From the IMG/VR virus record IMGVR_UViG_2548876858_000016: a stretch of 19,882 bases of DNA; one strand, written 5' to 3'. This stretch comes from a virus (lineage: Duplodnaviria > Heunggongvirae > Uroviricota > Caudoviricetes). Positions 2,206 through 19,882 of this stretch are shown here, piece by piece. Each line of letters begins with the position of its first letter. The stretch's first letter is position 1. The notes under the pieces are model-generated. The model saw nothing but the letters and a program-made list of their open reading frames with translations. It was not told where the DNA came from and ran no database searches. The translations under genes were made by a program, and so were the position numbers.

Positions 2206-2333
2206 CATAATCGCCGCTTCGCCCCTCAAGGTACATGCGAACATTTTTATCAATCATTGCGGAAACAGTCTCAATATGAAAACACTTCTGAGACTCGCTA
2301 TATAGCAGAACATATAAGTCAGCTGAGGAAGCC

Positions 2334-3657: not shown

Positions 3658-3659
3658 AT

Positions 3660-3938: not shown

Positions 3939-4123
3939 ATATTTATTTCAGAATAGTCATATCACTGGCAATTATCTCATGCATTTACGGATTACTCGTC
4001 CCGTTTCTGATATCAATGAAGGATACGGTAGCGGTAATTTCTGGCTTTGCACTGGCGTTTCTGACCCCGCCATGCATTTATGCCATTTATAAGGGGCTTT
4101 CTTTCACTAAGGATAAAAGATGA
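3935..4123 (+). CDS. Small membrane protein with two hydrophobic segments (62 aa)
   Basis: Track ORF; AGGAGG SD; segments IVISLAIISCIYGLLVPFLI and VAVISGFALAFLTPPCIYAI. Coupled on both sides by ATGA overlaps. Confidence 0.55.
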   Translation: MNIYFRIVISLAIISCIYGLLVPFLISMKDTVAVISGFALAFLTPPCIYAIYKGLSFTKDKR

Positions 4124-4947
4124 AAAAAATTATTTTTTCTTTAGCCATTGTTCTGCCTGCCATTGGCCTTGTCGGTTGTGATCGTGTTGAGCCTGGTAAT
4201 GTGGGCATCAAAGTCAACAAACTTGGCGACGACAAAGGCGTCGGTGAAGTGGTCGGTGTTGGTCGCTACTGGACAGGCTGGAACACTGAAGTTTATATCT
4301 TCCCGACCTTTAAGCAGATGAAGACCTACGATGATCCATTCAGTTTCCAGATGAGCGATGGAACAACCATTGGTTACCACATCGGAGTAGCCTACAAGGT
4401 TGATCCATCCAAAGTTACCACGGTGTTTCAAACCTACCGCAAAGGTGTGGATGACATTACCGACACCGACCTGCGCCAGAAGATAGCAGATGCACTAAAT
4501 CGGCTGGCCAGCAAAATGACCACTGATAAATTTATCGACGGTGGCAAATCTGAACTACTGGATGCAGCTCTAAAAGATATTCAGGCAGAAATGACGCCCA
4601 TCGGTATTCAGGTAATGAGCCTGTCTTATGTAGGTAAACCGGAGTACCCGCCAACCGTTATCGACAGCATTAACGCCAAAGTCACGGCAAACCAGAAAAC
4701 CCTGCAACGCGAGCAGGAAGTAAAACAGCGCGAAGCGGAAGCCAACATGTTGCGTGCGGAGGCTGCCGGACAGGCAGATGCAATTCGCACAAAAGCCCAG
4801 GCCGAAGCCGATGCTATTCGTTTACGCGGTGAAGCTCTGCGCCAGAACCCCGGAGTTATGGAGCTGGAAGCCATCAATAAATGGAACGGCACACTGCCGC
4901 AATACATGACCAGCGGAGCCAATACACCCTTTATCCAGGTTAAATAA
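4120..4947 (+). CDS. SPFH/band-7 (stomatin/HflK-C-like) domain lipoprotein
   Basis: 275-aa ORF; N-terminal signal peptide with lipobox LVGC (MKKIIFSLAIVLPAIGLVGC); central region resembles the SPFH fold; A/E/Q-rich coiled-coil tail (QREAEANMLRAEAAGQADAIRTKAQAEADAIRLRGEA); AAGGA SD 6 nt upstream. Confidence 0.75.
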   Translation: MKKIIFSLAIVLPAIGLVGCDRVEPGNVGIKVNKLGDDKGVGEVVGVGRYWTGWNTEVYIFPTFKQMKTYDDPFSFQMSDGTTIGYHIGVAYKVDPSKVTTVFQTYRKGVDDITDTDLRQKIADALNRLASKMTTDKFIDGGKSELLDAALKDIQAEMTPIGIQVMSLSYVGKPEYPPTVIDSINAKVTANQKTLQREQEVKQREAEANMLRAEAAGQADAIRTKAQAEADAIRLRGEALRQNPGVMELEAINKWNGTLPQYMTSGANTPFIQVK

Positions 4948-4954
4948 CTTATAT

Positions 4955-4973
4955 GCCCGGCAGGCCGCCGGGC
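4955..4973 (+). other. GC-rich hairpin (GCCCGGC-aggcc-GCCGGGC) between the SPFH gene and the next gene, without a U-tract
   Basis: Perfect 7-bp GC stem with 5-nt loop; no T-run follows, so not a classical intrinsic terminator; possible RNA-stability or processing element. Confidence 0.4.
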
Positions 4974-4987
4974 TAAGGGAAAAGCAG

Positions 4988-5347
4988 ATGAACACTCATA
5001 ATACTCAACCGCAAATAATGAACTATGACCCAAATCTGACGTTATGCGGACGCATGGCAAAACAAACCGTTCGATTAATTTTCGGGCTATGGGAATACCG
5101 CGAAACATTCGAAGTCACTGTCGGTGGCAACCTGACCGGACTCGATGTTATCAGTTGCGCTATTGAAAGCCTGTACGAAACGCTGCCTTATGAAGAAGTC
5201 GAGGATGAGCGCGATATCATCGCCACCATTAATATCGGCGGCGTGAAATGCAAGGATGAAAACTTGATCGGAGAGCTATGGCTTGCCGGAATGCTTATCT
5301 CAGCAGAAATTATCAGTATTGAACCCGCTACAAACATACGGCTCTGA
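4988..5347 (+). CDS. Hypothetical protein (119 aa)
   Basis: Track ORF; AAGGG SD 8 nt upstream. Confidence 0.5.
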   Translation: MNTHNTQPQIMNYDPNLTLCGRMAKQTVRLIFGLWEYRETFEVTVGGNLTGLDVISCAIESLYETLPYEEVEDERDIIATINIGGVKCKDENLIGELWLAGMLISAEIISIEPATNIRL

Positions 5348-5378
5348 AGTTCTCACAACTCAGGGAACAGGAGAAAAA

Positions 5379-5621
5379 ATGTTCGCTTTGATTAATCAAG
5401 GGCAACTGTATACCGACAGTGCCGGTTACCCGGTAAAAATTATTCGCTGCATAAATAATATCGTGTTGTACAGAAGAATGGATGGGCGAACACAGTCGGT
5501 AAAAATAAACGATTTTAATGAACTGTTTGAACGGATCGATCACCAGGAATACCGACAAATTCTGGCAGAAACAGAGCAGGAAGCTCATCTGAAAAAATTA
5601 CGAGCCATGAAAAGGAAGTAA
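5379..5621 (+). CDS. Hypothetical small protein (80 aa)
   Basis: Internal ATG of track ORF 5283..5621, with AGGAGA SD ~5 nt upstream. Confidence 0.5.
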   Translation: MFALINQGQLYTDSAGYPVKIIRCINNIVLYRRMDGRTQSVKINDFNELFERIDHQEYRQILAETEQEAHLKKLRAMKRK

Positions 5622-5624
5622 AGA

Positions 5625-5771
5625 ATGAATAAAGCATTTGAACGATGGGTCCACCAGCGTTACGGCAATCGCTATGACCTGACACGAGATGTTGACGGTT
5701 TCTACTGTCGTGAAATTGTGAAACGAATGTTTGAAGTGTGGTGCCACTGCCGTGGGCTGAGTGTTGTGTGA
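5625..5771 (+). CDS. Hypothetical small Cys-containing protein (48 aa), not in ORF track
   Basis: My translation: MNKAFERWVHQRYGNRYDLTRDVDGFYCREIVKRMFEVWCHCRGLSVV, stop TGA at 5769-5771. AGGAAG SD ~8 nt upstream; fills the gap between neighbouring genes in the same orientation. Confidence 0.35.
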   Translation: MNKAFERWVHQRYGNRYDLTRDVDGFYCREIVKRMFEVWCHCRGLSVV

Positions 5772-5779
5772 GGTAATGC

Positions 5780-6016
5780 ATGGGCAATGTGATTCAACTG
5801 GCTCCCAATGAATGGGTTTGTGAAAGCGTTCTAATCGCAATTACCGGGCTCAAACCAGGCACAATTCTTCGGGCCCGGAAAGAATGCTGGATGGTTGGAA
5901 GAGAGTATATTCACGTATCACCAGACGGTAATCCAAAGCCTTCCAGTGAATGTATGTATAACAGAAAAGCAATAGATGCCTGGGTTGCTTCAATGAAAAA
6001 CAAACAACCTGGGTGA
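5780..6016 (+). CDS. Excisionase-like (Xis-type) small DNA-binding protein
   Basis: 78-aa ORF immediately upstream of the integrase; EW...R...W...GREY pattern reminiscent of lambda-type Xis; GAGGT SD. Confidence 0.55.
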   Translation: MGNVIQLAPNEWVCESVLIAITGLKPGTILRARKECWMVGREYIHVSPDGNPKPSSECMYNRKAIDAWVASMKNKQPG

Positions 6017-6071
6017 TTTAATGCCATGAAGTATGTAAGCTCGTATCGCTCTTGGGTGTCTGGAGGTATCA

Positions 6072-7385
6072 ATGGATAAAGTCAAATATCCAACAGGCGT
6101 CGAAAACCACGGTGGCACATTACGCATCTGGTTTAATTTTAAAGGTAAACGTGTCAGGGAAAATCTTGGTGTCCCTGACACTGCCAAGAACAGGAAGATC
6201 GCCGGAGAGCTGCGGACATCTGTATGTTTTGCTATTCGTACAGGAAACTTTGATTACGCTGCGCAGTTCCCTGACTCTCCTAACCTCAAGGCTTTTGGGG
6301 TAAGTAAAAAAGAAATTACGGTGAAGGAACTTGAAGAAAAGTGGCTGGATCTGAAACGAATGGAAATCTCTGCAAATGCATTCAATCGCTATGAATCCGT
6401 TGCAAGAACGATGGTTCCGAAAATTGGAGGCAGCAGACTGGTGTCATCGGTAACTAAAGAGGAATTGCTGTATATCAGGAAAGATTTGCTGACCGGATAT
6501 CAGAATTCAACGAAAAACAAAGCAGCAGCAAAAGGACGGAGCGTCGTTACTGTAAATTATTACATGACGACAATCGCTGGAATGTTTCAGTTTGCTGCAG
6601 ATCACGGTTACCTAGAAGCAAATCCTTTCCAGGGAATTAAGCCTCTTAAAAGAGCCAGGGCAGAGCCAGATCCGCTAACTCGTGACGAATTTATTCGCCT
6701 GATAGATGCTTGCCGACATCAGCAGACGAAAAACCTGTGGTCATTGGCTGTGTACACAGGAATGCGTCACGGTGAACTGGTCTCCCTGGCCTGGGAAGAT
6801 ATCGATCTGAAAGCAGGAACTATTACTATCAGGCGCAATTATACGAAACTCGGTGAGTTCGCTCTACCTAAAACTGAAGCAAGTACAAACAGGGTTGTGC
6901 ATCTTATCCAGCCCGCTATCAGTGTCCTGAAAAATCAGGCTGAAATGACAAGACTGGGTAAGCAGCACCACATCAAGGTTCAACTACGTGAATATGGGCG
7001 TTCAGTGAATCATGAATGTACTTTCGTATTTAACCCCCAGGTGGTTAGAAAAAGCAAACAGGTCGGTTTTATCTACAAGGTAGATTCTATTGGCGACTCA
7101 TGGGAAACAGCCATTAAGCGTGCGGGCATCAGGCACCGGAAAGCATACCAGTCACGACACACTTATGCGTGCTGGTCATTATCTGCCGGAGCAAACCCAA
7201 GCTTCATTGCCAGCCAGATGGGCCATGCAAGTGCCCAGATGGTGTTCAATGTATACGGAGCATGGATGACTGACAGTAATGCAGAACAGATCGCAATGCT
7301 GAATCAGAAGCTGGCAGATTATGTCCCAATGATGTCCCATGGTCACCAAAGTGACACAAGAGACTTATTAAAATCAGTGGGTTAG
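6072..7385 (+). CDS. int: Tyrosine site-specific integrase (phage integrase family)
   Basis: 437-aa ORF; GGAGGT SD; C-terminal catalytic-domain pattern (TGMRHGEL, HxxR-type segment SRHTYA, catalytic Tyr in NVYGAWM); stop lies directly at the junction with the host-gene fragment. Confidence 0.9.
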   Translation: MDKVKYPTGVENHGGTLRIWFNFKGKRVRENLGVPDTAKNRKIAGELRTSVCFAIRTGNFDYAAQFPDSPNLKAFGVSKKEITVKELEEKWLDLKRMEISANAFNRYESVARTMVPKIGGSRLVSSVTKEELLYIRKDLLTGYQNSTKNKAAAKGRSVVTVNYYMTTIAGMFQFAADHGYLEANPFQGIKPLKRARAEPDPLTRDEFIRLIDACRHQQTKNLWSLAVYTGMRHGELVSLAWEDIDLKAGTITIRRNYTKLGEFALPKTEASTNRVVHLIQPAISVLKNQAEMTRLGKQHHIKVQLREYGRSVNHECTFVFNPQVVRKSKQVGFIYKVDSIGDSWETAIKRAGIRHRKAYQSRHTYACWSLSAGANPSFIASQMGHASAQMVFNVYGAWMTDSNAEQIAMLNQKLADYVPMMSHGHQSDTRDLLKSVG

Positions 7386-7399
7386 CCTTCAATACCCGT

Positions 7400-7813
7400 C
7401 ATGTTAACTGTGTGGAGGGTAACACCACGCTTTATGCCCTGCCGAAACCCGAGGTTGTCCTGCGCTGGCGTGAGCAGACCACAGATGACTTCCGCTTCTG
7501 TTTTAAGTTTCCGGCGACTATTTCGCATCAGGCAGCATTACGGCATTGCGATGATTTAGTGACTGAATTTTTGACCCGCATGTCACCGTTGGCTCCGCGC
7601 ATTGGACAATACTGGCTGCAACTGCCTGCCACATTCGGCCCACGGGAGCTGCCTGCGCTTTGGCATTTTCTCGACTCTCTTCCCGGCGAATTTAATTATG
7701 GTGTGGAAGTCCGCCATCCACAGTTTTTCGCCAAAGGGGAAGAGGAACAAACGATTAATCGCGGTTTACATCAGCGCGGCGTTAATCGGGTGATTTTCAT
7801 CAGACACGTTTAA
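7400..7813 (+). pseudogene. yecE: Internal fragment of a DUF72-family host gene (yecE-like), disrupted on both sides
   Basis: Frame encodes ~135 aa (VEGNTTLYALPKPEVVLRWREQTTDDFRFCFKFP...GVEVRHPQFF...) with no plausible start. Assignment to DUF72/yecE is from memory of the family. The fragment sits between the integrase and the serine recombinase. Confidence 0.5.
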
Positions 7814-7914: not shown

Positions 7915-9438
7915 ATGAAACGTGTAATCAGCTACATCAGATTCAGTTCTGAGCGACAAGCCAAAGGCGACTCACTACGCAGACAGTCTAAGATGGTTAA
8001 TGACTGGCTTAAGGCTCATCCTGAGTACTACCTTGACCAAGATTTATCCTTCCGTGATTTGGGGGTGAGTGGGTTCACTGGTAAGCACTTGAAAGGTGGC
8101 TTAGGTGACTTTTTAACCGCTATCGAGAAAGGGCTTGTTAAAGCTGGTGATACGCTCTTGATAGAATCTCTTGACCGTCTGTCACGTCAAGATGTAGACC
8201 AAGCAAGTGAGCTACTCAGAAACATTCTTCGCTCTGGTGTAGATGTGGTCACCTTGTCCGATGGTGAACATTACACACGAGAATCTCTTAAAGACCCGTT
8301 AGCTCTGATTAAAAGCATTCTGATAATGCAGCGGTCGCATGAGGAGAGTTTGAGGAAGTCTGAGCGTATACAAGCTGCATGGAACCGTAAAAAAGAACTC
8401 ATCTCTGAAGGTATCAAGATTTCTAAACGTTGTCCTGCATGGCTTAAGCTTAATGATGACCGTAAAAGCTTCTCTGTAATCCCTGAGAAAGTGGAGACTG
8501 TGAAGAGGTGCTTTCAGCTACGGTTAGAGGGTAAGTCTATCTGGGAGATTGTCAGGACTCTTAATGATGAAGGTCACCAGACGCTTAACCAATATAAAGC
8601 GGGTTCATTTGGTCAAACCTCAGTACAAGACCTTCTGAAAAATCGCTCTGTAATTGGTTACTTCACACCTAAAGGCTGTGAAGAGATAGCTGATTATTAT
8701 CCTGCAATTATAGATGAAACAACATTCTACAAAGTCCAGCAACTATCATATGCTCGTTACGGTAGAAAACCTGCTTCAGATAAGCCAATGGCTGTGAATC
8801 TTTTCAAAGGTGTTATCCGTTGCTCTGAATGTGGTCATGCTCTGATTATCACAGGCTTTAGCGATACAAGAAACGGGATTTATCGCTGTCCCCTTCGTAA
8901 TGAAAACCGTTGTAGTGCTAAAGGGCTGTCACGTAAGCAAACCGATGGTACATTGCTTACCCTGCTATCTCGTCTTGACCGATTTGATAGCGATACGACG
9001 AATACCATCGATACACTGAAGTTACACCGTGAACACATCTCAAGCAATATTGAGAAGCTGGTACAGCTATCACTTGAAATTGAAGATTTGTCAGCTATTA
9101 CCAGCAAGCTAAAACAACTAAAGAATGAGCTATCACAGGTTGATGCGGATATCGAGAAGGAGACACAACGCCTTAAATCTATTGATGTGGGGTGTTTGTC
9201 TGATTGTGACTTGACTACAAAGGCGGGAAGGATTGAAGCACAACTGATAATCAAAAGTGCTGTTAAAGAGGTCGTTTTAAATACTGCTAAACGTCGATGT
9301 AAAGTGACTTTTCACAACGGTAAGGTAATTGACCTACCAATAACAGAAAACCCCTCAGACAACGTTACAGAGGCTATACAGTCGCTTTCTGAAGTCACTG
9401 AGAGGGGTTTAATAGATGTTGATGAGGTTATCATATAG
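7915..9438 (+). CDS. Large serine recombinase (resolvase catalytic domain + recombinase domain + zinc-ribbon)
   Basis: 507-aa ORF; N-terminal YIRFSSERQ with catalytic Ser; Cys cluster CSECGH...YRCPLRNENRC; C-terminal coiled coil. Confidence 0.85.
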   Translation: MKRVISYIRFSSERQAKGDSLRRQSKMVNDWLKAHPEYYLDQDLSFRDLGVSGFTGKHLKGGLGDFLTAIEKGLVKAGDTLLIESLDRLSRQDVDQASELLRNILRSGVDVVTLSDGEHYTRESLKDPLALIKSILIMQRSHEESLRKSERIQAAWNRKKELISEGIKISKRCPAWLKLNDDRKSFSVIPEKVETVKRCFQLRLEGKSIWEIVRTLNDEGHQTLNQYKAGSFGQTSVQDLLKNRSVIGYFTPKGCEEIADYYPAIIDETTFYKVQQLSYARYGRKPASDKPMAVNLFKGVIRCSECGHALIITGFSDTRNGIYRCPLRNENRCSAKGLSRKQTDGTLLTLLSRLDRFDSDTTNTIDTLKLHREHISSNIEKLVQLSLEIEDLSAITSKLKQLKNELSQVDADIEKETQRLKSIDVGCLSDCDLTTKAGRIEAQLIIKSAVKEVVLNTAKRRCKVTFHNGKVIDLPITENPSDNVTEAIQSLSEVTERGLIDVDEVII

Positions 9439-9452
9439 TTGAGATTCTATCG

Positions 9453-10226
9453 TCAGTAGCGCTTATTCGGATTCACCGAAAACTTCTTCAAAGTACTACC
9501 TGTACCAGCATTATTAAGCACCTTTGAAGCTTGCTCATTAGCGGCATCTGAGAAGGTGCTTTTTCCGTTCTTAACTCTGACATTCCTACCACAATTGATA
9601 CGGGCTTGAAGTTGCTCATTAGAAAGTTCACTCGTAGAGCGATTATATAGCTCCTGACACATCAACATACCGTTACCTAAGCTTGTCGTAGTGTTCCCTG
9701 TATTCTTTTTGCTGGTAGCACCACCATCATTTGTAGTAGCTGTCTTTCCAGTAGCAGCCGAAATATCAGTTTGACCCACAATAGCTTTAAAGTTAATTTC
9801 CTGAAAAGTTAGCTGGATTCTTAGACCATTTGAAATACCAACATCTTTAGAGGCTTTAAAGCTTGTAATAATGGAGTCATCAATTTTAATACCATCTTTA
9901 CAGATGACCGAAATAATCTGCTTCTGGTCACGCCAGTTTTCAAGAGTGTCGATGAAGTTCTCCACCAGCTTATTATCTCTTGAGATAAGGATACTACCGG
10001 ATTCACCAACCACAACCACACCACTGATTGAAATAGTTCTTGGTGAACGCATTACATTATCTGTTACAGTCTGCCCTGATTGCATATTTTGAGTGGTCAC
10101 CATCATAGGGCTGTCATATTCCATCTGTTCAGTTGCTGATAAGGTTAAGAAATTATCTGGCTGTCCTTGTAGATGGAAGTAAACACCATCTTTACCAGTG
10201 TAACGAAGCTGACTAGTGTAAATCAT
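9453..10226 (-). CDS. Hypothetical protein (257 aa); possible tail component by position downstream of the tape-measure-like gene
   Basis: Track ORF; GGAGA SD 5 nt upstream of ATG; convergent with the recombinase gene. No domain recognised. Confidence 0.55.
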
Positions 10227-10389: not shown

Positions 10390-12480
10390 TCATTCTTCCT
10401 CTGGATAGCTTGAACTTAAGAGCATATCCTGCGTGAACTGGTCATTAGCTGATTGATTGAAAGTAAAGAAAGCTGGTTCATCCGGTCTAACAATTGCTTC
10501 ACCAGTGATATTAACTGACAAGGGCTTCTTAGCTTCTACTGTTAAAGCATCAACCTTGCGTGATAGCTCACTAATAGTCATTGCAAGTTGAGCATTACTA
10601 TTAACCATGTCACCCGTAATAGCTGGTGGAGTTGATTGTGTGTTATTTACGAAGTTATTCATCGGTTCTTGGGAGTTAGCAATTTTATCAGCTGCACTAC
10701 TAAACCAACCTTTAACATCGTCCATAGTGAACACTGGTTTAAGTCCAGACTCTTTAGCTAGCTCTGGTAATTTAGCTTGTGCTTCCATTCGTTCAGGTGT
10801 AGAAGCTAATCTTTCATAACCTGCATAGATAGCACTACCAGCTAATAGCATATTCATAGGGTTTAGTCTTGATGGTTTCCCATTCTTTCTATTCACGTTA
10901 TCCGCTGTGGTATCAGCGACCTGACCTAATCTTGTGATAGCAGTCATAAGCCCGTAAATACTTCTGGTTACACCAACAACTTTATTCACAGCAATAACAC
11001 CAGCCAAGACTTTTAAACTATTAATCAAGCCAGAACCTAAAGCATCAACTACTTTCTTTTGCTCATCGGTTAAACCACGATAAGCTAATGTCACCTCATC
11101 GAAGAATGCTCTTACCCTGTAGCTGATATCAGTCAATGAATCGACACCATGCGACATATCGCTCATCAAGCTACCAAGAGATTCACCAAGACTTTTACCA
11201 CTTCCACCAAGAGCGTTTAAAAGCGTTGTTAGGCTTCTTGTGAAATCTTGAAGACCATTTTCAGAACCTCTGAAGATACTATCAAGCGTGGTATTCCAAG
11301 AGTTTTTCAAGTTCCCTAGTTGTGCCTGTGTACTTTCTGAAATGGCTTTCCAGCCACCTTTAGCGGTGATTTGTCTATTCAGTTCCTGAGTGACCTTCTG
11401 AAGAGTATCGGCAGATTTTAAAGCCCCCTTCTTCATGGCATCAAATAATTCCTGTTCACTCTTTCCGGTTGCTTTAGCGAATACCTGAACCATACCAGGA
11501 ACAGCTTCAGCCAGTTGCCCCTTAAGCTCTTCAGCCATAATCTGACCCTTACCAGCCATCTGTGATAATGCTGTCAGTGCTCGCTTAATCTCTTCTTCAC
11601 TTCTCCCCATCAGACGAGCATAGCCAATCATATTTTTAAAAAGTTCTTCAGAACCTTGAATACCCATAGACTCTTTAGCTGAAGCACCAAAACCAGCAAA
11701 CTGTGATTGCAGTTCAGCGATATCTAAACCCGTTGTTTGAGCTAATGACTTTGTGAACTCTTTTACCTGACCTGCATCTTTATCAAATACGAAATCAATT
11801 GAACGCTCAGCACTTGCACGCTGTAAACCAATTTCCATAATCTTCTGATAACTGGCTAATACAGCCTGCATTGAGATAAATGCACCTGCTGTTTTAACTG
11901 CTGCTGAAGACAGGTTATCAAGACTATTAGCTGCTCTGTCAGCATTAATGCTGGTGGATGTATGACCTCTGGCTTTAGCAATTGCTTCTCTGACTGAAGC
12001 GTTTAACTGAGCTAACTTCTCATTGAATTTTGAAGAATCCATTGACCCGGCTTTAGCAGATAGCCCGTAAAACTGAGATTTGATGTATTTCTGCAAAATA
12101 GGGTCAAAGCCTTTTAGCTTAGACATATTAGCTGAGTAAGCCGCTGTGATTGCTCTGTTGCCGCTAATTAGTGGCTGTCTTGGCTGTCTAAGTGGCTTTA
12201 AAGTATCCTCAATTTCCGTTTTAATCTTAAACGCTCTAGTGTTTTTAAGACGCTGCTCAATCTTGTCAAAGGTCTTATTAAACTTCCTTTCAAGTTGCCC
12301 TAAAGAACTTGTCAGATTGCTGTCAAGTTGCTTGGTATCGACCTTAAACGCTCTATTCAAATTGCGTTCAATTCTTTGTGCTGACTGCAAAGCTGCCTTT
12401 TCAACTCTTTGCAGTCCCTTAATAACGTTTTCATTGAAGCCTAGCTCAACGATAAAACTATCAACTGTGAATTTGCTCAT
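10390..12480 (-). CDS. Phage tail tape-measure-like protein
   Basis: 696-aa ORF; central region (GSEELFKNMIGYARLMGRSEEEIKRALTALSQMAGKGQIMAEELKGQLAEAVPGMVQVFAKATGKSEQELFDAMKKG) matches the tape-measure core pattern; coiled-coil N-terminus; GAGGTG SD. Confidence 0.7.
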   Translation of the reverse strand: MSKFTVDSFIVELGFNENVIKGLQRVEKAALQSAQRIERNLNRAFKVDTKQLDSNLTSSLGQLERKFNKTFDKIEQRLKNTRAFKIKTEIEDTLKPLRQPRQPLISGNRAITAAYSANMSKLKGFDPILQKYIKSQFYGLSAKAGSMDSSKFNEKLAQLNASVREAIAKARGHTSTSINADRAANSLDNLSSAAVKTAGAFISMQAVLASYQKIMEIGLQRASAERSIDFVFDKDAGQVKEFTKSLAQTTGLDIAELQSQFAGFGASAKESMGIQGSEELFKNMIGYARLMGRSEEEIKRALTALSQMAGKGQIMAEELKGQLAEAVPGMVQVFAKATGKSEQELFDAMKKGALKSADTLQKVTQELNRQITAKGGWKAISESTQAQLGNLKNSWNTTLDSIFRGSENGLQDFTRSLTTLLNALGGSGKSLGESLGSLMSDMSHGVDSLTDISYRVRAFFDEVTLAYRGLTDEQKKVVDALGSGLINSLKVLAGVIAVNKVVGVTRSIYGLMTAITRLGQVADTTADNVNRKNGKPSRLNPMNMLLAGSAIYAGYERLASTPERMEAQAKLPELAKESGLKPVFTMDDVKGWFSSAADKIANSQEPMNNFVNNTQSTPPAITGDMVNSNAQLAMTISELSRKVDALTVEAKKPLSVNITGEAIVRPDEPAFFTFNQSANDQFTQDMLLSSSYPEEE

Positions 12481-12500
12481 TCATATTTTTCACCTCTTTA

Positions 12501-12594
12501 AGCGTGTTGTACGTAAATTCTATTTTTCAGTGTGGGTATTAGCTTTACAGATTTCATGAGGATAATTCTTATCCGAATCATCACGTAGCACACA
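12501..12594. promoter_or_regulatory. Copy B of the duplicated intergenic regulatory element, upstream of the tape-measure-like gene
   Basis: Same conserved blocks as 10310-10376 with a ~27-bp insertion; contains CACGTAGCACACAGGAT (12582-12598). Confidence 0.5.
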
Positions 12595-12622
12595 GGATTC
12601 GATAGAAGACTATCTCATATAC

Positions 12623-12663
12623 AAAAAAGGGAGAGCTACCGATGTCACTCGATAATCTCTCCC
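12623..12663 (-). terminator. Candidate intrinsic terminator on the minus strand (GGGAGAG / CTCTCCC stem, 21-nt loop, U6)
   Basis: 7-bp GC-rich stem at 12629-12635 / 12657-12663; on the minus-strand transcript it is followed by UUUUUU (plus-strand A6 at 12623-12628). Loop is long for a terminator. Confidence 0.4.
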
Positions 12664-12688
12664 GTTGATTTTTACCCAACCAATCTTT

Positions 12689-12892
12689 TTACCTAACCAG
12701 ATAATAATTACCATCTTCACCGACAATCTGACAATCACTTGGTAATTTATCAAGACACCATTTAGCGATTCTTCTGATTCTATTCTTTTGCTTAGAGGTG
12801 GATGATTTGATTCGTTTTGGTTTGTTGGGTTGTTCTTTCAATCGTTCACTAATTGCTTTAATAAGCTCATAGCGTTCTGTTAAATCAATCAT
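12689..12892 (-). CDS. Hypothetical small basic protein (67 aa)
   Basis: Track ORF; strong AGGAGGTG SD; Lys/Arg-rich centre (KPKRIKSSTSKQKNRIRRIAK). Confidence 0.5.
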   Translation of the reverse strand: MIDLTERYELIKAISERLKEQPNKPKRIKSSTSKQKNRIRRIAKWCLDKLPSDCQIVGEDGNYYLVR

Positions 12893-12916
12893 TCACCACC
12901 TCCTTTTAATTCATAG

Positions 12917-13657
12917 TTAAAGTGCCTTTGCATATTTCTGAGAAATCTTCACTAACTGCTCAATATCAGCCTGCATAGCAATTTTCTTCTGTGATTCATA
13001 TTCACTAACAAGCTCTTTCATAGTATCAAGCTCTTTTTTAAGCTTTTGCTTTAACTTATCCAGCTTATCGGAGTAATGCTTAGTCAGATTAGCTTCAGCT
13101 AACTGAAGAATCTCTTCATCTGTTTTGTTAGTCATCAGGATATATGAGCCTGTACCACGTGAAGCTTGTCTGACATCCATTAATCGAAAACCGTCAGGAA
13201 TACTTTGAAGCACTTTTGGAACATTCTCTCTTGCTGTACCGAAACCATTGTTGTAATTTCCTTCGTAATAGATAAACGGGTTTGTCTTAAGCTCATATTC
13301 AATATCATATTCTGAAGGTTTCTGAGTTTCTTCGAAGTTTTTGACAACATCATAAGCATTATCAAGCTTGATGCGCTGCTCTTTTAGTAGTGGATAGTAC
13401 TTCCTCTCAAGTGCAATCAGAGCTTCTGTCTTGCAAACATCAGTCATTTCCAGAGGCTCAGGATTGATATATTCAAGATTATTGGCTGGAACAATCTTTC
13501 GCAGCCTTTCTTTTTTGGCCTCTTCATCTGCAAGCTTGGCAATAATTTTGTGATAAGGTTTCATATGTGCATACTCATCTCCTTCATCAGTAAAATGCAA
13601 ATCATATGCACAAGGTTTTCTATCAACAATCGCTTCATGTTCATCACGGATAGACAT
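12917..13657 (-). CDS. Hypothetical protein (246 aa), charged with coiled-coil C-terminus
   Basis: Track ORF; GAGGAAAA SD ~9 nt upstream. Confidence 0.55.
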   Translation of the reverse strand: MSIRDEHEAIVDRKPCAYDLHFTDEGDEYAHMKPYHKIIAKLADEEAKKERLRKIVPANNLEYINPEPLEMTDVCKTEALIALERKYYPLLKEQRIKLDNAYDVVKNFEETQKPSEYDIEYELKTNPFIYYEGNYNNGFGTARENVPKVLQSIPDGFRLMDVRQASRGTGSYILMTNKTDEEILQLAEANLTKHYSDKLDKLKQKLKKELDTMKELVSEYESQKKIAMQADIEQLVKISQKYAKAL

Positions 13658-13692
13658 TATTATTTTTCCTCTTCTAAGATAATTTATGTTTC

Positions 13693-13774
13693 AGTTTTTA
13701 AAAAGCACACCTGACAGCCTACGAACTTAGAAGAGACTTAAAAGGCGGTTTGCCAAGTGCGCTTTTTAAAAGCT
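13693..13774. repeat. 18-bp inverted repeat (AGTTTTTAAAAAGCACAC ... GTGCGCTTTTTAAAAGCT, 16/18) with ~47-bp spacer
   Basis: Seen directly in the sequence, inside a 470-bp ORF-free gap between minus-strand genes. Confidence 0.6.
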
Positions 13775-14130
13775 GAAAAAGCCCTAGATAACTAAAACGC
13801 TATAAAGGGCTAAGGTGAAGAAATTAAAGAACATCCAAAGGATTCAATAACGAATGAACAAAGACTTTTTGAGATAGCCTATCTAGTGTGGGCTAAATAG
13901 GCCATGACGAAAAGCATTGCACCTTTCCAACTCAGAATAACTATCATTGATGTAGAATGATTAATAGTTTAATTCAGGAAGAGTTGCTCTCCCCTATTAC
14001 CATCATCTCATGCTTAAGGTTATTTGTCAACAGCTTTTAACAGATTGATAACATCAATTCTTATTTACTGTGTTACCCACCCAGCAACCAACAAATAAGC
14101 CAAGCAACGTCCAAGCAATTATTAAGCCCA

Positions 14131-14454
14131 TTAGTGAACCCTCACGGAATCCGTAACCAAAATATTATCGCTGTACAGGATTGTCACAGCACCTTTCAAA
14201 AATCGCTCTGGGGAAATACTGTATTTGTTCGTTTGCTCAATAACCAATCTTTTCATATTACTGTCTGTAATTGGTAACATCATTCGAGGCTCGTTAAACT
14301 CCACCGAGTGAATAAAGTCAGAGATGCTTTCCGCATTATCAGCCATTAACTCTAACAACTTATCAAAGTCAATGCTAACACCTACATCAGTGAAAGCCTG
14401 AATCATCATGGCGGTGTCGGTATCAATAAAAATCTGTAGTGGGAAATTATTCAT
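14131..14454 (-). CDS. Hypothetical protein (107 aa)
   Basis: Internal Met of track ORF 14131..14565 (MNNFPLQIFIDTDTAMM...), with AGGA SD 9 nt upstream. Confidence 0.5.
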   Translation of the reverse strand: MNNFPLQIFIDTDTAMMIQAFTDVGVSIDFDKLLELMADNAESISDFIHSVEFNEPRMMLPITDSNMKRLVIEQTNKYSISPERFLKGAVTILYSDNILVTDSVRVH

Positions 14455-14592
14455 TTTTAAAATCCTATAAAAACACATCTTAAATCTGCCAAAATAGCCA
14501 TTCTGAGGCCAGTAACCATGCGGGTTACAGAGGGAGTGAGACACCTTAGTAATAGGGTAGCTCATCTTTGAGTCTCACTCATTCTCACAGAC

Positions 14593-14979
14593 TTACACAG
14601 ACGCTTTAATCTTGTAGTATTGACTACGTGATAAGCCGTATTTCTCAGAAATATAACTTTGTGATTGTCCTTTGGTGATTGCATCAATGATTAAATCTTT
14701 ATCGTATCTGTTACCGTTGGCTTTGTGCTTGTCACTATTTTTAATAGAGTTGAAGTTCTCCATTAATTCAATGGCGTCTTTAAGGTCGCTTTCGTAAGCA
14801 TAATCAAAACCTCTGATAAACTCGAAATCACCATTATCTTTTTGTGCTTCAGCCCAGATATCAAATCTTGAGGCTAATTGCTGGTGGGTAAACTTGGGCT
14901 TATTGGTTTGTGTTACGTCTTTCCAGACCTTACCGTCAAATCTTACCAAATGGTCACGATGCTTATAAAAATCATACAT
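14593..14979 (-). CDS. Hypothetical protein with C-terminal HTH (128 aa)
   Basis: Track ORF; GGAGG SD; C-terminal ITKGQSQSYISEKYGLSRSQYYKIK resembles a resolvase/Hin-type or small-terminase-type HTH. Start overlaps the upstream stop (TAATG). Confidence 0.55.
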   Translation of the reverse strand: MYDFYKHRDHLVRFDGKVWKDVTQTNKPKFTHQQLASRFDIWAEAQKDNGDFEFIRGFDYAYESDLKDAIELMENFNSIKNSDKHKANGNRYDKDLIIDAITKGQSQSYISEKYGLSRSQYYKIKASV

Positions 14980-15257
14980 TAAACCTCCATTGCTAATTTG
15001 TGAATTTTGATACTTAGTAATCTTGCTAAATCCAGTCCAAAGGCATTTAGAGCCTTCAGACTATCAAGGTCATCTTGCTTAATCCTGATATGGTGTCTTG
15101 CTGCCTCTAAACGACTATTAAGCAAATCCTGCTCGTTAATATCACGGTTAATTGCAAGCTTCATCACTGCTGAGTGTGGCAGACCTGTAATGTTTTTGAT
15201 TCGGTTAAGTTCGTCAAAGGCTGTCTTTGTAACTCTGGTTAAAGTGTGCTTAGTCAT
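14979..15257 (-). CDS. Hypothetical protein (92 aa)
   Basis: Track ORF; tightly packed between neighbours in one minus-strand operon. Confidence 0.5.
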   Translation of the reverse strand: MTKHTLTRVTKTAFDELNRIKNITGLPHSAVMKLAINRDINEQDLLNSRLEAARHHIRIKQDDLDSLKALNAFGLDLARLLSIKIHKLAMEV

Positions 15258-15260
15258 TAT

Positions 15261-15824
15261 TTAAAATCCTTCTGCTTGTGCGTACACGTCAAATTCAAAG
15301 TCTGGCTCACTGCTTGTAAGACTGATATTACCAACGGTAATATGATGCTCGACAATACCAATTAACTTTGCGCACATCACAGCAAGTAATGCGCAATAGG
15401 CATCGCTTGGTAACTCATGGCTTAACCTGGTTGCCTGACGCTGGAGATGGTTTGTCACGGTAGCTGAGTTAATTTCATCAAGATTCTTTAGAAGATAAAA
15501 CAATTTCTTGTTGTATTTTGGGTGCCCCTCACTTCTGCAAAATCCGATAAGAATGTCGTCAAGCTTGCTCGGTAATTGCTCGTAGCTGTCAAAGTTAGCC
15601 AGATAATTCTTGATGCTGTTCTTTGTTGTTTTGCGTACTGACATATAACGACTCCTCGGTGTAATTGCCCGAATTACTTCGTCAATGCCTTTGCGTTCTG
15701 CTCTGGTGAACTTGGGTGCTTCGTGGCTGGTGGGGGAGTTTGTGTAGCTGTAGGAGTTGTAGGAGTTGTATCTGTTACGTTGTCTCGATGCCTGAAGCAT
15801 CGCTCTAAATTCTCTGTCGTTCAT
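15261..15824 (-). CDS. Hypothetical protein (187 aa) with in-frame 9-bp tandem repeat
   Basis: Track ORF; AAGGA SD 11 nt upstream; GTAGGAGTT x2.3 at 15750-15770 encodes NSYNSYSY. Confidence 0.55.
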   Translation of the reverse strand: MNDREFRAMLQASRQRNRYNSYNSYSYTNSPTSHEAPKFTRAERKGIDEVIRAITPRSRYMSVRKTTKNSIKNYLANFDSYEQLPSKLDDILIGFCRSEGHPKYNKKLFYLLKNLDEINSATVTNHLQRQATRLSHELPSDAYCALLAVMCAKLIGIVEHHITVGNISLTSSEPDFEFDVYAQAEGF

Positions 15825-15910
15825 TCATAAGCTAGTCCTTATAATTGTTAATTCTCTGTTAACTTATATAGACAATACTAGCATTTTCAAAGACTAATGT
15901 CAAGCATTTT

Positions 15911-15940
15911 TTAACATTTCATTAACATCTGTGGTATAAT
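15911..15940 (+). promoter_or_regulatory. Candidate sigma70 promoter with extended -10 (TTAACA-18-TGgTATAAT)
   Basis: TATAAT at 15935-15940 preceded by TG at 15932-15933; TTAACA at 15911-15916. Confidence 0.5.
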
Positions 15941-16122
15941 GGTTCTATGGGGAGAGTAAAATATAAAGGCGTGGCTATGAGAGTGGTCATATGGTTATTG
16001 CATTGCACACAGACCTCTTCAATCGCTCTGTAACGAGTTAAATGGCCTCTTCAGGTCAACATATAAGGTCAGGTACTTTTTTGTGTCAGAATGCGATTGA
16101 GAGCGTCTTACAAGGAAAACTA

Positions 16123-16299
16123 ATGGTAAATCTCCCTCCTGAGCTGGGGTCACCTGATGTATGGGCTGGTGGAGGTGTTGGGCTGATTGCAGGTCTGCTA
16201 CTTCGCTACGTCCTCGTCAGAGTGCTTGTTGTCTTTAAACTGTTCGGTCGTACATGGACGCTTGACCTTAAGGATAACGACCACACAGAACCCCGTTAA
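16123..16299 (+). CDS. Candidate small single-TM protein (58 aa)
   Basis: Internal ATG of track ORF 16042..16299, with AAGGA SD 6 nt upstream; hydrophobic segment VGLIAGLLLRYVLVRVLVVF; downstream of the 15911-15940 promoter. Confidence 0.35.
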   Translation: MVNLPPELGSPDVWAGGGVGLIAGLLLRYVLVRVLVVFKLFGRTWTLDLKDNDHTEPR

Positions 16300-16340
16300 A
16301 CTCCCTTCAAAACCCCCTGTACGTGATGGTATAGGGGTAT

Positions 16341-16357
16341 CTTTAGCATTTTGTGCT
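16341..16357. promoter_or_regulatory. Copy 1 of 17-bp dyad motif CTTTAGCAWWWWGTGCT
   Basis: CTTTAGCATTTTGTGCT; internal dyad AGCA-N5-TGCT; same motif recurs at 17471-17487 and inverted at 17501-17517. Confidence 0.45.
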
Positions 16358-16525
16358 ATCTATTAATAAATAGCTTGACATAACCGGAAAACTGAATCTA
16401 TCAAGTATTCACCCCTCTGACAGTAATTTCTAAAAATGCTTATTTTTCAATGAGTTGTAATTAGCCAATATAAAGGACTGACAAGACTCTTCACAGAGAA
16501 CTTTCAAGACTCACTAAGACACAAG

Positions 16526-16562
16526 GCGATAACCCCAGACAGGGAGAGCCTCCTTCTTAACC
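16526..16562. repeat. Direct repeat copy A (GCGATAACCCCAGACAGGG...TCTTAAC)
   Basis: ~75% identical to 16696-16732; contains a CCCC-N5-GGG mini-hairpin. Confidence 0.5.
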
Positions 16563-16695
16563 GACTTCTTAAACAATCTTTACAGACCCCCGTTCACCAG
16601 TCTCAATATTTTTATTTCTCGCTCTTCGTTTTTTGCTCGTTTCTATTATTGAGGGGGTTTGAAAAACCTCTGTAAAATAACCCTTCCAGTAAAAA

Positions 16696-16763: not shown

Positions 16764-17432
16764 TCAGCCCAACCTTTGAACAATCCTGTAAGTGGTGCTT
16801 AGAGGTATTCTTAGCGATTCTGCGATGCTCTTGATGGGTTGCCCTTGGTCATACATTTTAATCAACCTGTCAAGCGTCTGTGCATCGTGCATATGAGGTC
16901 TTCCACGTAAACCACCCCTGTTAACCACGGCAAGTAAAAGCATTGTGTCACCACAATAGATTGTCTGGGTAACTTCAACTTTCGGTTTGCGGGGTGTGTT
17001 CCTGTATATCAAAACGCAACTTGGAAACGGTGAGCGCACTACAACACCTCTCTTTCCTGCTGGTGGAAGGTATTTGACTGCTCGGTGTAACGTTCGAATC
17101 TCATGCAGGAAGGGGTTTGTATATACACACCGAAGCCAGTAAGTTGTCTTTGACCTGAGCGGAACCAGACATACACACACATCAGCTTCAGGGGCTTTTA
17201 AGAGGAACTTTTCAGCCATGCTAAACGGCGGGTTAACGAAGACCCGTTCACCAACCCATGATTGATTGTGAATATCATCGGTGAACCGTGGCAACAATGC
17301 GTCATACTCAGTTGCAGCACCATCTAGACTGAAGTTAAACTCACGATGCAGGTTATGAAATAAACGATACGGTGTACGCCAGTCATCAGAACCACCATGA
17401 TAACGACCAACATTGATTATTGGATGCGACAC
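16764..17432 (-). CDS. Phage Dam-family N6-adenine DNA methyltransferase fused to a C-terminal resolvase/Hin-type HTH
   Basis: 222-aa ORF with GTG start (AGAGGGG SD ~10 nt upstream). N-terminal ~150 aa shows DDWRTP...F.F.LDGAA...NPPFS...SPFPS, which I recognise as the phage Dam MTase pattern; C-terminal GRPHMHDAQTLDRLIKMYDQGQPIKSIAESLRIPLSTTYRIVQRLG resembles a serine-recombinase HTH. Confidence 0.7.
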   Translation of the reverse strand: MSHPIINVGRYHGGSDDWRTPYRLFHNLHREFNFSLDGAATEYDALLPRFTDDIHNQSWVGERVFVNPPFSMAEKFLLKAPEADVCVCLVPLRSKTTYWLRCVYTNPFLHEIRTLHRAVKYLPPAGKRGVVVRSPFPSCVLIYRNTPRKPKVEVTQTIYCGDTMLLLAVVNRGGLRGRPHMHDAQTLDRLIKMYDQGQPIKSIAESLRIPLSTTYRIVQRLG

Positions 17433-17470
17433 AAGCGAAGCGCCCCTCTTAGTATATTTCTTAATCGTCT

Positions 17471-17517
17471 CTTTAGCATTTAGTGCTTTTTGTTAAGTTT
17501 AGCACTTTTTGCTAAAG
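17471..17517. promoter_or_regulatory. Inverted pair of the 17-bp dyad motif, upstream of the Dam-HTH gene; candidate operator
   Basis: CTTTAGCATTTAGTGCT (17471-17487) and reverse complement of CTTTAGCAAAAAGTGCT (17501-17517), 13-bp spacer; 40-85 bp upstream of the GTG start; a minus-strand TATACT -10 candidate lies at 17451-17456. Confidence 0.45.
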
Positions 17518-17944
17518 ACAAAAGCATTGACAAAATGGTAGGATTGTTCACATAGCCCTTACTTAACAGACTCTTAAGAGCTTTGAAACAGCCTGTTTAA
17601 CAAGGTCACTACCTCTGGTCTTATCGTTCCCTTCTTTCTAGGTAGTCATCTGTTAAGAACTTTTCAGTTTTATTCTTAAGATAATTGTTAAGATGATACT
17701 CTCCCTTCGGGTTATATCGTATCTCTCCTCCCGTTAAATATCCCTTCACAGTCAGACTAAATAACACCTGTGTAGTTTCTTGGTAGAATCTTTCAAGGTA
17801 ACTTAACTCTGAGTTTATGAAGTTGACCTATGAGATAGACTCTACCGAATCTGTTAGTCAATTGTTGCTTAGGTGCTGCTAAGGCTTACTTAGTGGGAAG
17901 AGAGGGAATATGTGACCATAGGAACCCCTCCTGTTAAAAGCTTC

Positions 17945-17979: not shown

Positions 17980-18148
17980 TGTACTAGGTTTACTTCCAAA
18001 GCAACCAAGCACACTCTCTATGGCAGTGTCCAGCGAGGTAAGGTCGTGTAGGGTGCGGTTCGGTGGGGTAAGGTTTGGTGCGGTATGGGTGGATTGTCGT
18101 AGCCACGTTAAAAATCGACTTATAGGGACTCTTTCGGGAGTCCTTTTT
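17980..18148 (+). ncRNA. Candidate ~170-nt small RNA bounded by promoter and intrinsic terminator; G-rich internal tandem repeat
   Basis: Starts ~7 nt after the -10 and ends at the 18125-18148 terminator; contains GGTAAGGT...GGTGCGGT twice (18046-18095); the only overlapping ORF (18020-18298) reads through the terminator and looks non-coding. Confidence 0.4.
18125..18148 (+). terminator. Rho-independent terminator (GGACTC-tttcgg-GAGTCC + T5)
   Basis: 6-bp stem at 18126-18131 / 18138-18143, T-run 18144-18148; plus-strand specific. Confidence 0.6.
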
Positions 18149-18298
18149 AGTTTGTATAAAATCTGTACAGTAACTTTTCAGAGTCTGAAAATTTTTATAA
18201 ATATCGTAGTAACCCCTCTACATTCCCCTTCACCGATAATTTTCAAAAATATCTACACTCAATTGATGGCTGTTAAGTACCCCAGATTCACGATATAG

Positions 18299-18308
18299 CC
18301 CCCCCCCC
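18299..18308. repeat. Homopolymeric C10 tract
   Basis: Ten consecutive C in intergenic DNA, immediately upstream of a promoter-like TTGCAA-16-TATAAC (18310-18337). Confidence 0.9.
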
Positions 18309-19048
18309 TTTGCAAAAGCAGTTAAAATATCTATAACCAACCATTGACTTTCTTCATGATATCTGTTTAGCCCCACCTCAATAAGCCATCATCACACATC
18401 AAAGCATCTATCAAGAAGGTTTAACCTATCAATAGCTGTAACATTTTATAGTTCTGTGAAGTCCTATCCAGTTTTCTCTGTAACAGCTACAAACTTCTGT
18501 GACCTTATGTGTCAATGACTTATAAGACATGCTCTCAAGGTGCTGTATAGCCTCTTATCAGCCAATACACAAAACCCTTATAAATCAGTACTGATATGTA
18601 TACAGTATGTTTTTAACATAATAGCTGTTTTACGCACTAATAAGCACCTACGTAGATTCTGTATAGAGATTAAGATGTCTCTAAGTGATTTTTTAAGAGG
18701 AGATACGAAGGAACTATAACCATCACTTCATAACTTTCACGTAGGTAACTATTAAGTAGGTTGATAGTCACTTTGAGGGAATATTGATAGTGACCAACTG
18801 CATAGACACCGTTATATAGCCCTGTATATAGCACTATATGTAGTGTCTGGAGAGGGACGACTAACACGATATAGTTTACCCTGAAAAGAGGATTTACAGA
18901 TTCTCTATACATTTCAATAAGTTATGATAAAAAGGGGCTATGTCGATACTGTATAGAATCTGTGTAGGATTGCATAGATACTTGGAAAAATACCGTTAAA
19001 TTGCATAGGTACTAACCTGTTTATGTCCTGTTATTTACAGGCATAGCA

Positions 19049-19882
19049 TTATTGGTTAATTAATTCATCCGACTCTATATCATTACCTTTTTCTTTTTCC
19101 TTTTTAATTTTAGCCTCTACCATATCGAACATTTTCATTGTCTGTGATGAAGTTAGCTCTTTCTTTTGTCGTAGCGCGTTACGTATGGTAGAAGCTTCAA
19201 TATCAGAAACTGTTAAAAGTTCTTCTACCCTACTCTTCAATTGCTGTAATGAACGGCTATTATCAACTTTAAAGAAATCATCCATTACCTCAAGTGAGGC
19301 AACAATCAAATCCTGTAGTCTCTCTTTTTCTATCTCGATATTTTCAATGGTTTGTTTTTCTTTAGATACTAACTGCTTTAAATTATTAATTTCTTTCTGA
19401 ATCAGTTTCTTCTCTGTCTGTAGCTCTTCTGTGACCAGCTCTTCACGCTTACCACGCTCTACTTCCGCTTTAATATCAGCATCAATTTTAGCATTTTCTT
19501 TCTCTTCTTCTCTGGCAGCCCGAACCTTTAACCCCGTTAACCTGATTGAATCCAAGTATTCTTTTTCCTTTGTAAGATAAACATTTTCATTGTGTTTATC
19601 TGTAGCCCATTTTTGAGCAAGAGAAAGTAACCATTGAGCATAAGGAGTAATAACAGCTAGCACACCTCCAAAAAAGACAGGAGCAAGCAGATAATGAGCG
19701 TAAAAATATTCCTGAGATAGTATATAATCTATTCGAAACTTAACAGGCGCATCACTCATAAAGAGCATTGCTAAGTTAGGCCAGTTGAACCATACCCATG
19801 CAAGAATGATATATCCCCATAATGGGCTTTTAATCCTATCGTTTATTGCTTGCATAGTAGAATCTAACCACCCATCACTCAT
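19049..19882 (-). CDS. Membrane-anchored coiled-coil protein (two N-terminal TM segments + long K/E-rich coiled coil); start at or beyond window edge
   Basis: Track ORF; hydrophobic segments LWGYIILAWVWFNWPNLAMLF and YLLAPVFFGGVLAVITPYAQWLL, then heptad-like K/E-rich sequence. The Met at 19880-19882 is the last codon in the window, so the true start may lie outside. Confidence 0.55.
   Translation of the reverse strand: MSDGWLDSTMQAINDRIKSPLWGYIILAWVWFNWPNLAMLFMSDAPVKFRIDYILSQEYFYAHYLLAPVFFGGVLAVITPYAQWLLSLAQKWATDKHNENVYLTKEKEYLDSIRLTGLKVRAAREEEKENAKIDADIKAEVERGKREELVTEELQTEKKLIQKEINNLKQLVSKEKQTIENIEIEKERLQDLIVASLEVMDDFFKVDNSRSLQQLKSRVEELLTVSDIEASTIRNALRQKKELTSSQTMKMFDMVEAKIKKEKEKGNDIESDELINQ

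Follow-up and report, generated by a model that had tools for sequence, protein, structure and literature searches.

The 19,882-nucleotide stretch analysed here, referred to as the window (IMG/VR record IMGVR_UViG_2548876858_000016), is a piece of Escherichia coli chromosome. This work concerns a block of four minus-strand genes within it, which we call A, B, C and D, together with the ~12-kb island that carries them. A preliminary description of the block, made from the letters alone, reported four tightly packed open reading frames (ORFs), none of them recognisable, and suggested a regulatory or small-terminase-like module or an accessory system of the element. All four ORFs were found where they had been placed, and the spacing given for them was accurate: A and B are 3 bp apart, B and C share a 1-nt overlap (TAATG), and 138 bp lie between C and D. 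The ORF list also holds a longer version of D (14131..14565, 144 amino acids [aa]); the start at 14454 is favoured because nearly all of the D relatives listed are 107 aa long. The genes, and a short repeat within A, are as follows.

15261..15824, minus strand: gene A, 187 aa, with a basic low-complexity N-terminus and a confident helical core at residues ~70-165; core gene
14979..15257, minus strand: gene B, 92 aa, with a probable N-terminal ribbon-helix-helix (RHH) motif and perhaps another; core gene
14593..14979, minus strand: gene C, 128 aa; its N-terminal half varies and its C-terminal helix-turn-helix (HTH), of the resolvase/HTH_7-28 type, is invariant; variable slot
14131..14454, minus strand: gene D, 107 aa, acidic; core gene
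15749..15770: 9-bp tandem duplication within A, NSY to NSYNSY, found with Tandem Repeats Finder (TRF)

Substitution rates were determined with orthologues from six related loci (four from E. coli, one from Escherichia albertii and one from Citrobacter), which with the window make seven loci. Over the six related loci, the median ratio of nonsynonymous to synonymous substitution (dN/dS) was 0.19 for A, 0.135 for B, 0.14 for C and 0.20 for D, at dS values of 0.26-0.9. All four genes are real, and purifying selection acts on them. Because dN/dS stays at 0.13-0.20 while synonymous divergence is high, they are not decaying pseudogenes. Between loci, proteins A-D diverge to 64-85% identity, while the ~170 bp upstream of them stay nearly invariant. 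The divergence among loci is mosaic, B for example falling into two allele classes that are ~98% and ~60% identical, and this pattern points to long-standing recombination among lineages. A, B and D were present in all loci examined and thus form the core of the block.

The view that none of the genes is recognisable held up: A-D gave no match above threshold in Pfam, PHROG, NCBIfam or PADLOC, and the same scans gave no clear homology to standard packaging or replication proteins above threshold. A-D are all annotated as 'hypothetical'. A near-identity DNA search with a 2.2-kb segment against phage and plasmid collections returned no match, and neither did a translated search with protein A against phages.

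The helical fold of A is shared only with uncharacterised proteins of virulent phages. A single-protein search with A against PDB sequences gave nothing meaningful, and its distant relatives (P0153-P0155) offered no functional clue except their phage context. In one real phage contig, an A-like gene comes first in a series of small ORFs and lies ~4 kb upstream of the terminase. The in-frame 9-bp tandem repeat that had been noticed in A was confirmed by TRF (TGTAGGAGT x2.4, 100% matches), and it encodes NSYNSYSY. Its proposed role as a slippage site for length variation did not withstand comparison, as a single NSY copy is present in all 120 of the 120 cluster representatives of A, and among the A sequences compared (these representatives and the window), NSYNSY occurs in the window alone. 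The exact allele (WP_071791669.1) is found on 3 contigs, and a sibling allele of 184 aa from the same 90% cluster is found on 192. The repeat is also statistically unremarkable, because TRF found 11 small repeats of comparable score in the window, this one included. It is a rare private duplication and no contingency locus.

Protein B bears a weak resemblance to RHH proteins. Six of the seven B orthologues gave a weak match to DndE (best E 0.018, below the cut-off) and two of the seven to VapB_antitox; these matches cover a strand-helix-helix segment and all lie under curated thresholds. Both the DndE and the VapB-antitoxin families belong to the ribbon-helix-helix clan. Profiles of B and D searched against PDB sequences gave nothing meaningful, and hhalign detected no relationship between B and D, for which reason the idea that both are tandem RHH proteins remains pattern-reading only. 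D has 3070 close homologues, all named 'hypothetical', and no family match in the Pfam and PHROG scans; its AlphaFold2 model is unreliable (predicted local distance difference test score 40.9).

The C-terminal HTH claimed for C was partly borne out. Three Pfam families match residues 93-127 (HTH_28, E 0.0033; HTH_7, E 0.043; HTH_23, E 0.095), and the UniRef label on the exact C sequence is 'Helix-turn-helix domain-containing protein', but all of the family matches are sub-threshold (17.9 bits for HTH_28, against a gathering cut-off of 25 bits), and C can be called HTH-like only weakly. A single-protein search against PDB sequences gave nothing meaningful for C. Among C homologues, the C-terminal region is almost invariant and the N-terminal half varies. 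In ET82, B and C are separated by an HNH gene of ~90 aa. An HNH gene plus unrelated sequence takes the place of C in MLI107 and E. albertii. Because HNH genes displace or join C, and some intact-looking variants miss it, C is not core. The small HNH genes of this slot (90-95 aa; L002 9342-9614, L004 9900-10187 and L008 ~2760-3030) carry an HRDGN..NL motif, which we take to be of the homing-endonuclease type. A role for them as an HK97-style packaging cofactor was considered and downgraded, given their small size, the variable slot, the motif and the lack of an adjoining terminase. In one protein, P0134, HNH and C are fused, and P0135-P0138 represent fragments of C with frameshifts. Within the 138-bp spacer between C and D, an inverted repeat, GAGTGAGAC ... 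GTCTCACTC, was seen at ~14540-14580 on the minus strand.

The sequences that flank the block hold predicted promoters, two small genes and a long hairpin:

15875..15903, minus strand: promoter P_A of the four-gene operon, TTGACA-17-TAGTAT with a TG upstream of the -10; 10/12 in a consensus scan
15911..15940, plus strand: divergent promoter, back to back with P_A, TTAACA-18-TATAAT; 11/12 matches; kept in all loci
15845..15862: operator-like pair of units in 11-bp phase, TTGTTAATTCTCTGTTAA, situated after the -10 and before the Shine-Dalgarno sequence of A; kept across island variants
14054..14131, minus strand: fifth gene, 25 codons, encoding the hydrophobic peptide MGLIIAWTLLGLFVGCWVGNTVNKN; its ATG overlaps the D stop (TAATG)
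14002..14030, minus strand: second promoter, P2, TTGACA-17-GATGAT in the window and CATAAT in most variants; conserved
13689..13778, minus strand: long hairpin, U-rich on its 3' side and placed 32 nt before the ATG of the next gene (246-aa protein)
16123..16299, plus strand: conserved 58-aa protein with one hydrophobic segment, from the divergent promoter; terminator at 16314-16337

The -35 and spacer of P_A are invariant in the seven loci, Citrobacter included, and ~170 bp around the back-to-back promoters are nearly invariant in all of them, again including Citrobacter. P_A resembles a strong sigma-70 promoter, and on the strand of A-D the regional scan predicted no intrinsic terminator. The 25-codon ORF, which the preliminary description missed, is kept in all seven loci, where its changes are mostly synonymous, and is without annotation in RefSeq. 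Between the window and locus L002 it shows eight synonymous-only codon changes and three replacements (counted from printed sequences), and the TAATG overlap indicates that it is translationally coupled to D. A pair of units, CTGTTAA..CTGTTGA, lies across the -35 of P2. The hairpin at 13689..13778 (dG -43 kcal/mol, z -4.66) has 26 pairs, of which five show compensatory double changes among six sequences. It looks like a terminator or attenuator and may act as an attenuator that gates the downstream operon, which includes a tape measure protein (TMP) gene. Since this terminator- or attenuator-like hairpin sets off the late-looking downstream genes, we regard A-D and the 25-codon ORF as a unit of their own. 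Of the related genomes examined, just one has the divergent 58-aa gene annotated. The product of this gene might be a toxin, serve in exclusion or resemble a holin.

The operator-like pair in the leader of A has counterparts in the terminal repeats of Felix O1-like phages, a group of virulent myophages. These phages package by direct terminal repeats (DTRs), and PhageTerm determined a DTR of 581 bp for Pr103Blw (PMC8303462). Every Felix O1-like record that was opened at its inferred termini starts at ~12771 in Felix O1 coordinates. In phage I14.1, a 581-bp sequence is repeated exactly at the two ends. In Felix O1, the DTR region holds a dense array of YTGTTAR units at ~11 bp spacing, which is unique within that genome. 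The paired form, YTGTTRR-N4-YTGTTRR, occurs seven times within 12788-13287 of Felix O1 (expected 0.08), with one further copy elsewhere in that genome; the 19.9-kb window holds a single copy (expected 0.01), which is the pair at 15845-15862. Specificity is limited to the paired form, as single YTGTTAR units are only mildly enriched in the island. A second sequence shared with the phage repeat lies further upstream of the block:

17597..17656: element similar to the interior of the DTR, an imperfect inverted repeat; kept in 5/6 island variants

This element is 81% identical over 62 nt to positions 245-303 of the I14.1 DTR (E 5e-9), and the same region is 87% identical over 45 nt to Felix O1 13018-13061. 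In Felix O1 itself (L006), the terminal repeat and the 11-bp-phased iteron array are contained in a 1.6-kb gene-free region between ORF23 and ORF24 (12306-13927), which is not discussed in the original Felix O1 genome paper. A further short stretch of the window, 18170-18201, is homologous to the region just beyond the 581-bp DTR of Felix O1-like phages.

Downstream of the block, two tail genes were recognised that also have Felix O1 counterparts:

10390..12480, minus strand: tape measure protein (TMP), aligning end to end with Felix O1 ORF67
9453..10226, minus strand: tail-tube initiator homologue ('baseplate protein'), counterpart of Felix O1 ORF68 and Bas63 gp18

The tube-initiator homologue is 72% identical in aa sequence and 83% identical in nucleotide sequence to Felix O1 ORF68, which immediately follows ORF67, the gene for the TMP. 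In phage Bas63, gp18 is the tail-tube initiator of the baseplate hub and is numbered directly after the TMP, gp17 (PMC12609058). We infer that ORF68 and Bas63 gp18 are equivalent because they share this gene order after the TMP. The island TMP (696 aa, against 742 aa in Felix O1) is 29% identical to that of Felix O1 overall; the first ~45 residues are nearly identical, as is the terminal LLSSSYPEEE, and the middle has diverged. DNA similarity to Felix O1 runs on for 40 bp upstream of the TMP start. The GC content of the island (36-44%) is near the 39% reported for Felix O1. Judging from these alignments, the TMP and tube-initiator genes of the island derive from Felix O1-like lytic myophages. 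They are the only genes of the island whose proteins have homologues in Felix O1. The conserved TMP termini and the 72% identity of the tube initiator suggest that contacts with the tail parts of a helper phage have been retained, possibly with a different tail length.

The element that carries these sequences is a ~12-kb island without head or packaging genes, rather than a phage. Its remaining recognised genes are:

7915..9438, plus strand: large serine recombinase (integrase), adjoining a yecE 5' fragment at 7412-7813
12689..12892, minus strand: 67-aa protein, a context gene
12917..13657, minus strand: 246-aa protein, with 25-72% identity between variants
16764-17432, minus strand: Dam-type N6-adenine methyltransferase fused to a resolvase-type HTH; cargo slot
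19049-19882, minus strand: terminal 277-aa protein, in which an N-terminal hydrophobic segment and a long coiled coil were seen by eye

The island starts from 7915, and in PEC1009 ~12 kb of it lie between the two halves of yecE. Its gene order there begins with the large serine recombinase, the 'phage baseplate protein', the TMP, the 67-aa and 246-aa proteins and the A-D block, and continues with ~1 kb of unannotated DNA, the Dam methylase-HTH fusion, ~1.6 kb of unannotated DNA and the 277-aa protein. Window positions 1-7385 belong to another element, a lambdoid prophage of which they hold the end (CI, a CII-like protein, a tyrosine integrase, SPFH and DUF5406); its tyrosine integrase adjoins the same yecE 5' fragment (window 6072-7813). 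Two unrelated elements thus occupy yecE in tandem, since both integrases adjoin that fragment. At a second site, tonB-yciI, the island has the same gene order with a different serine recombinase, and there an unrelated 221-aa protein takes the place of the 277-aa protein. The latter matches phrog_13369 and phrog_4780, both PHROG families of unknown function, and could be an exclusion or abortive-infection protein.

Scans with Pfam, PHROG and NCBIfam, together with the annotation, found no capsid, portal or terminase gene in the island, and the TMP and tube initiator are the sole structural genes recognised. Three unannotated blocks (15825-16675, 17432-17936 and 18153-19044; ~2.2 kb, mostly non-coding) are 80-94% conserved whatever cargo lies between them. 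Where the island sits at tonB-yciI, the Dam gene has given way to other cargo, an AP2/ERF-type gene in the case of TW11681 and a small resolvase in that of MLI107 (L003 12869-13393; L004 13136-13705). The three blocks are candidates for an origin, a packaging site or non-coding RNAs. They are rich in short direct and inverted repeats, such as TCTGTATAGA-type motifs, and an imperfect 15-bp tandem repeat, GGTAAGGTTCGGTGG x3.3 at 18037-18085, was assigned to the third of them. Spurious matches of miRNA models to hairpins were all that Rfam returned, and no tRNA was detected.

Of the 5426 complete E. coli genomes, 548 (~10%) match some part of the island, and the family extends to E. albertii and Citrobacter; in many genomes, insertion sequence (IS) elements interrupt genes that neighbour the block. 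Scans of viral contigs (viromes) returned proviral regions only. Our literature search, which was incomplete in coverage, so that an earlier description is possible, found no account of the island or of any satellite of Felix O1-like phages; one candidate paper on the island turned out to concern IncI1 plasmids instead.

We consider that A-D are best explained as the regulatory or DNA-handling module of a putative satellite of virulent Felix O1-like myophages, a reading to which we assign a probability of roughly 0.4. The anatomy of the island is that of a satellite because it has an integrase, few recognisable genes, no head or packaging genes, parts derived from a helper and helper-like cis sequences. 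Two features expected of satellites were found in it, namely an integrase of its own with defined ends (the serine recombinase at one end, and the yecE halves) and an incomplete set of virion and packaging genes. Of the three suggestions made earlier for the block, that of a regulatory module is the best supported, by the weak RHH-like and HTH-like signatures in B and C and by the nearly invariant back-to-back promoter region with its operator-like motif. The suggestion of an accessory system fared poorly, as A, B and D are core in every variant and the true cargo slot lies elsewhere, at 16.7-17.4 kb; that of a small terminase is weighed below.

A-D and the 25-codon ORF form the promoter-proximal operon of a ~12-kb integrative island that its large serine recombinase has put into yecE. 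In the proposed mechanism, the products of this operon would be small DNA-binding proteins, B being RHH-like, C HTH-like and A having a basic tail and a helical core; D is without assignment. Their predicted targets are iteron-type sites, namely the operator in the leader of A, the unit pair at P2 and the DTR-like element at 17.6 kb. Binding at sites common to the island and the phage terminal repeat would couple the programme of the island to infection by the helper. This programme would include transcription that runs past the conserved hairpin to the genes for the 246-aa and 67-aa proteins, the TMP and the tube initiator, and it might interfere with the DTR-dependent replication or packaging of the phage.

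A more ambitious version of this proposal seems to us doubtful at present. It holds that the island is the first recognised member of a family of satellites that prey on virulent Felix O1-like myophages in E. coli and its relatives; it would be equipped with its own TMP and tube initiator, and its A-D products would be a new set of DNA-binding proteins that bind the iterons of the helper repeat to sense infection and to divert or block packaging. Infection might be sensed, for example, if replicating phage DNA titrated an autorepressor off its operator. The TMP and tube initiator of the island could set the tail length of its own particles, or could poison the tail assembly of the helper.

Among known satellites, the PLEs of Vibrio (elements that resemble phage-inducible chromosomal islands) offer the closest parallels in architecture: they are likewise compact, are integrated by a large serine recombinase, consist almost wholly of ORFans and lack capsid and terminase genes. 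PLEs and, judging by its tail genes, the island are each tied to one virulent myophage lineage. PLEs are larger, at ~18 kb against ~12 kb. Unlike PLEs, the island carries a helper-derived TMP and tube initiator and a mimic of the helper DTR, features that to our knowledge have not been described for PLEs. No RepA-like initiator was recognised in the island, and PHROG and PADLOC revealed no similarity to catalogued satellite or defence proteins.

The phage-inducible chromosomal islands (PICIs) and capsid-forming PICIs (cf-PICIs) of Enterobacteria resemble the island in having E. coli and its relatives as hosts and in their chromosomal integration. They carry a copy of a helper packaging signal and morphogenesis genes that interface with helper parts, a principle that the island would share. 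PICIs are characterised by a tyrosine integrase, AlpA/Stl-type regulators, a primase-replicase, terS, ppi and rpp, for none of which did Pfam, PHROG or NCBIfam give a match in the island, which has a serine integrase. The helpers of PICIs are temperate phages, and what cf-PICIs encode is heads, with no tape measure or tube initiator. Genes of P4-like satellites (psu, sid, delta, the alpha primase and the P4-type integrase) likewise had no family matches in the island. The PICMIs of Vibrionaceae (phage-inducible, chromosomal and minimalist islands) are minimalist satellites of virulent phages (PMC10803314). As with the island, they are small, associated with virulent phages and almost devoid of recognisable genes; they differ in gene content, which is unrelated, and in integrase type, the island has tail genes, and no homology between the two was detected.

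Other functions for A-D have to be weighed against a regulatory role. The block might redirect packaging, with one or more of its proteins acting like the small terminase of a satellite, or like Ppi or Rpp of PICIs, by binding the DTR-like element and the large terminase of the helper, so that island DNA is packaged instead of phage DNA. Since Felix O1-like phages package by DTRs, the conserved copy of part of the helper DTR and the DTR-type motif in the operon leader fit this idea, as do the HTH in C and a faint match of B to the P27-family small terminase (TIGR01558, E 0.017). That match reached 15 bits against a cut-off of 45.6 bits, however, and no terminase family was found above threshold. 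Small terminases commonly have their HTH at the N-terminus. In C it is C-terminal, and C is dispensable, being missing from some intact-looking variants. The homing-endonuclease-type motif of the HNH genes in the C slot and the absence of an adjoining terminase gene also speak against packaging, as does the distance of ~4 kb that separates the A-like gene from the terminase in the phage contig. We therefore judge redirection of packaging, and with it the small-terminase-like reading of the preliminary description, to be unlikely. An excision or replication function, in which the block supplies a directionality factor for the serine integrase, or an iteron-binding initiator that recruits the helper replisome as RepA does in PLEs, or both, is in our estimation quite unlikely. 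In its favour are the iteron-like units, the position of A as the largest core protein and first gene of the operon, and the family scans, which recognised neither a replication gene nor a directionality factor elsewhere in the island; serine-integrase directionality factors are small and diverse, and recognising them is difficult.

A defence or addiction cassette appears improbable. An RHH-type antitoxin (B or D) would be combined here with the hydrophobic peptide as a membrane toxin, and the two would cause abortive infection on phage attack. Satellites commonly carry defence genes, and the 25-aa hydrophobic peptide that appears coupled to D, the weak VapB-antitoxin match of B and the second small membrane protein, encoded divergently, can all be read in this way. 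In PADLOC and Pfam, that match of B was the sole signal related to toxin-antitoxin or defence families for A-D, and none was above threshold. The block is moreover part of the invariant core of the island, separate from the variable cargo slot, and four or five genes are many for a toxin-antitoxin pair. The least probable explanation by far is that A-D are functionless leftovers of a decayed prophage. Annotation of all four genes as 'hypothetical', IS elements in neighbouring genes and the existence of frameshifted C fragments might suggest decay, but strong purifying selection at high synonymous divergence contradicts it, and gene order has been kept across two integration sites and three genera, with a nearly invariant promoter region.

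As a regulatory or DNA-handling module, the block would place the island in a known class of elements: the find suggests that the island belongs among the phage satellites, of which none was known for Felix O1-like phages in the literature searched. Should this prove true, E. coli would offer an experimentally tractable parallel to the PLE-ICP1 system, with a phage group that is widely used in typing, biocontrol and therapy. Because about one-tenth of complete E. coli genomes carry the family, the island could shape susceptibility to Felix O1-like phages. If confirmed, a satellite equipped with a tape measure and a tube initiator of its own, and with a copied element of the terminal repeat, would represent a new hijacking strategy. 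Even on a conservative reading, the genes are no longer 'prophage junk', two unannotated small genes have been added to the region, and a control region with a testable motif has been identified. The four-gene operon is the obvious place to seek the switch.

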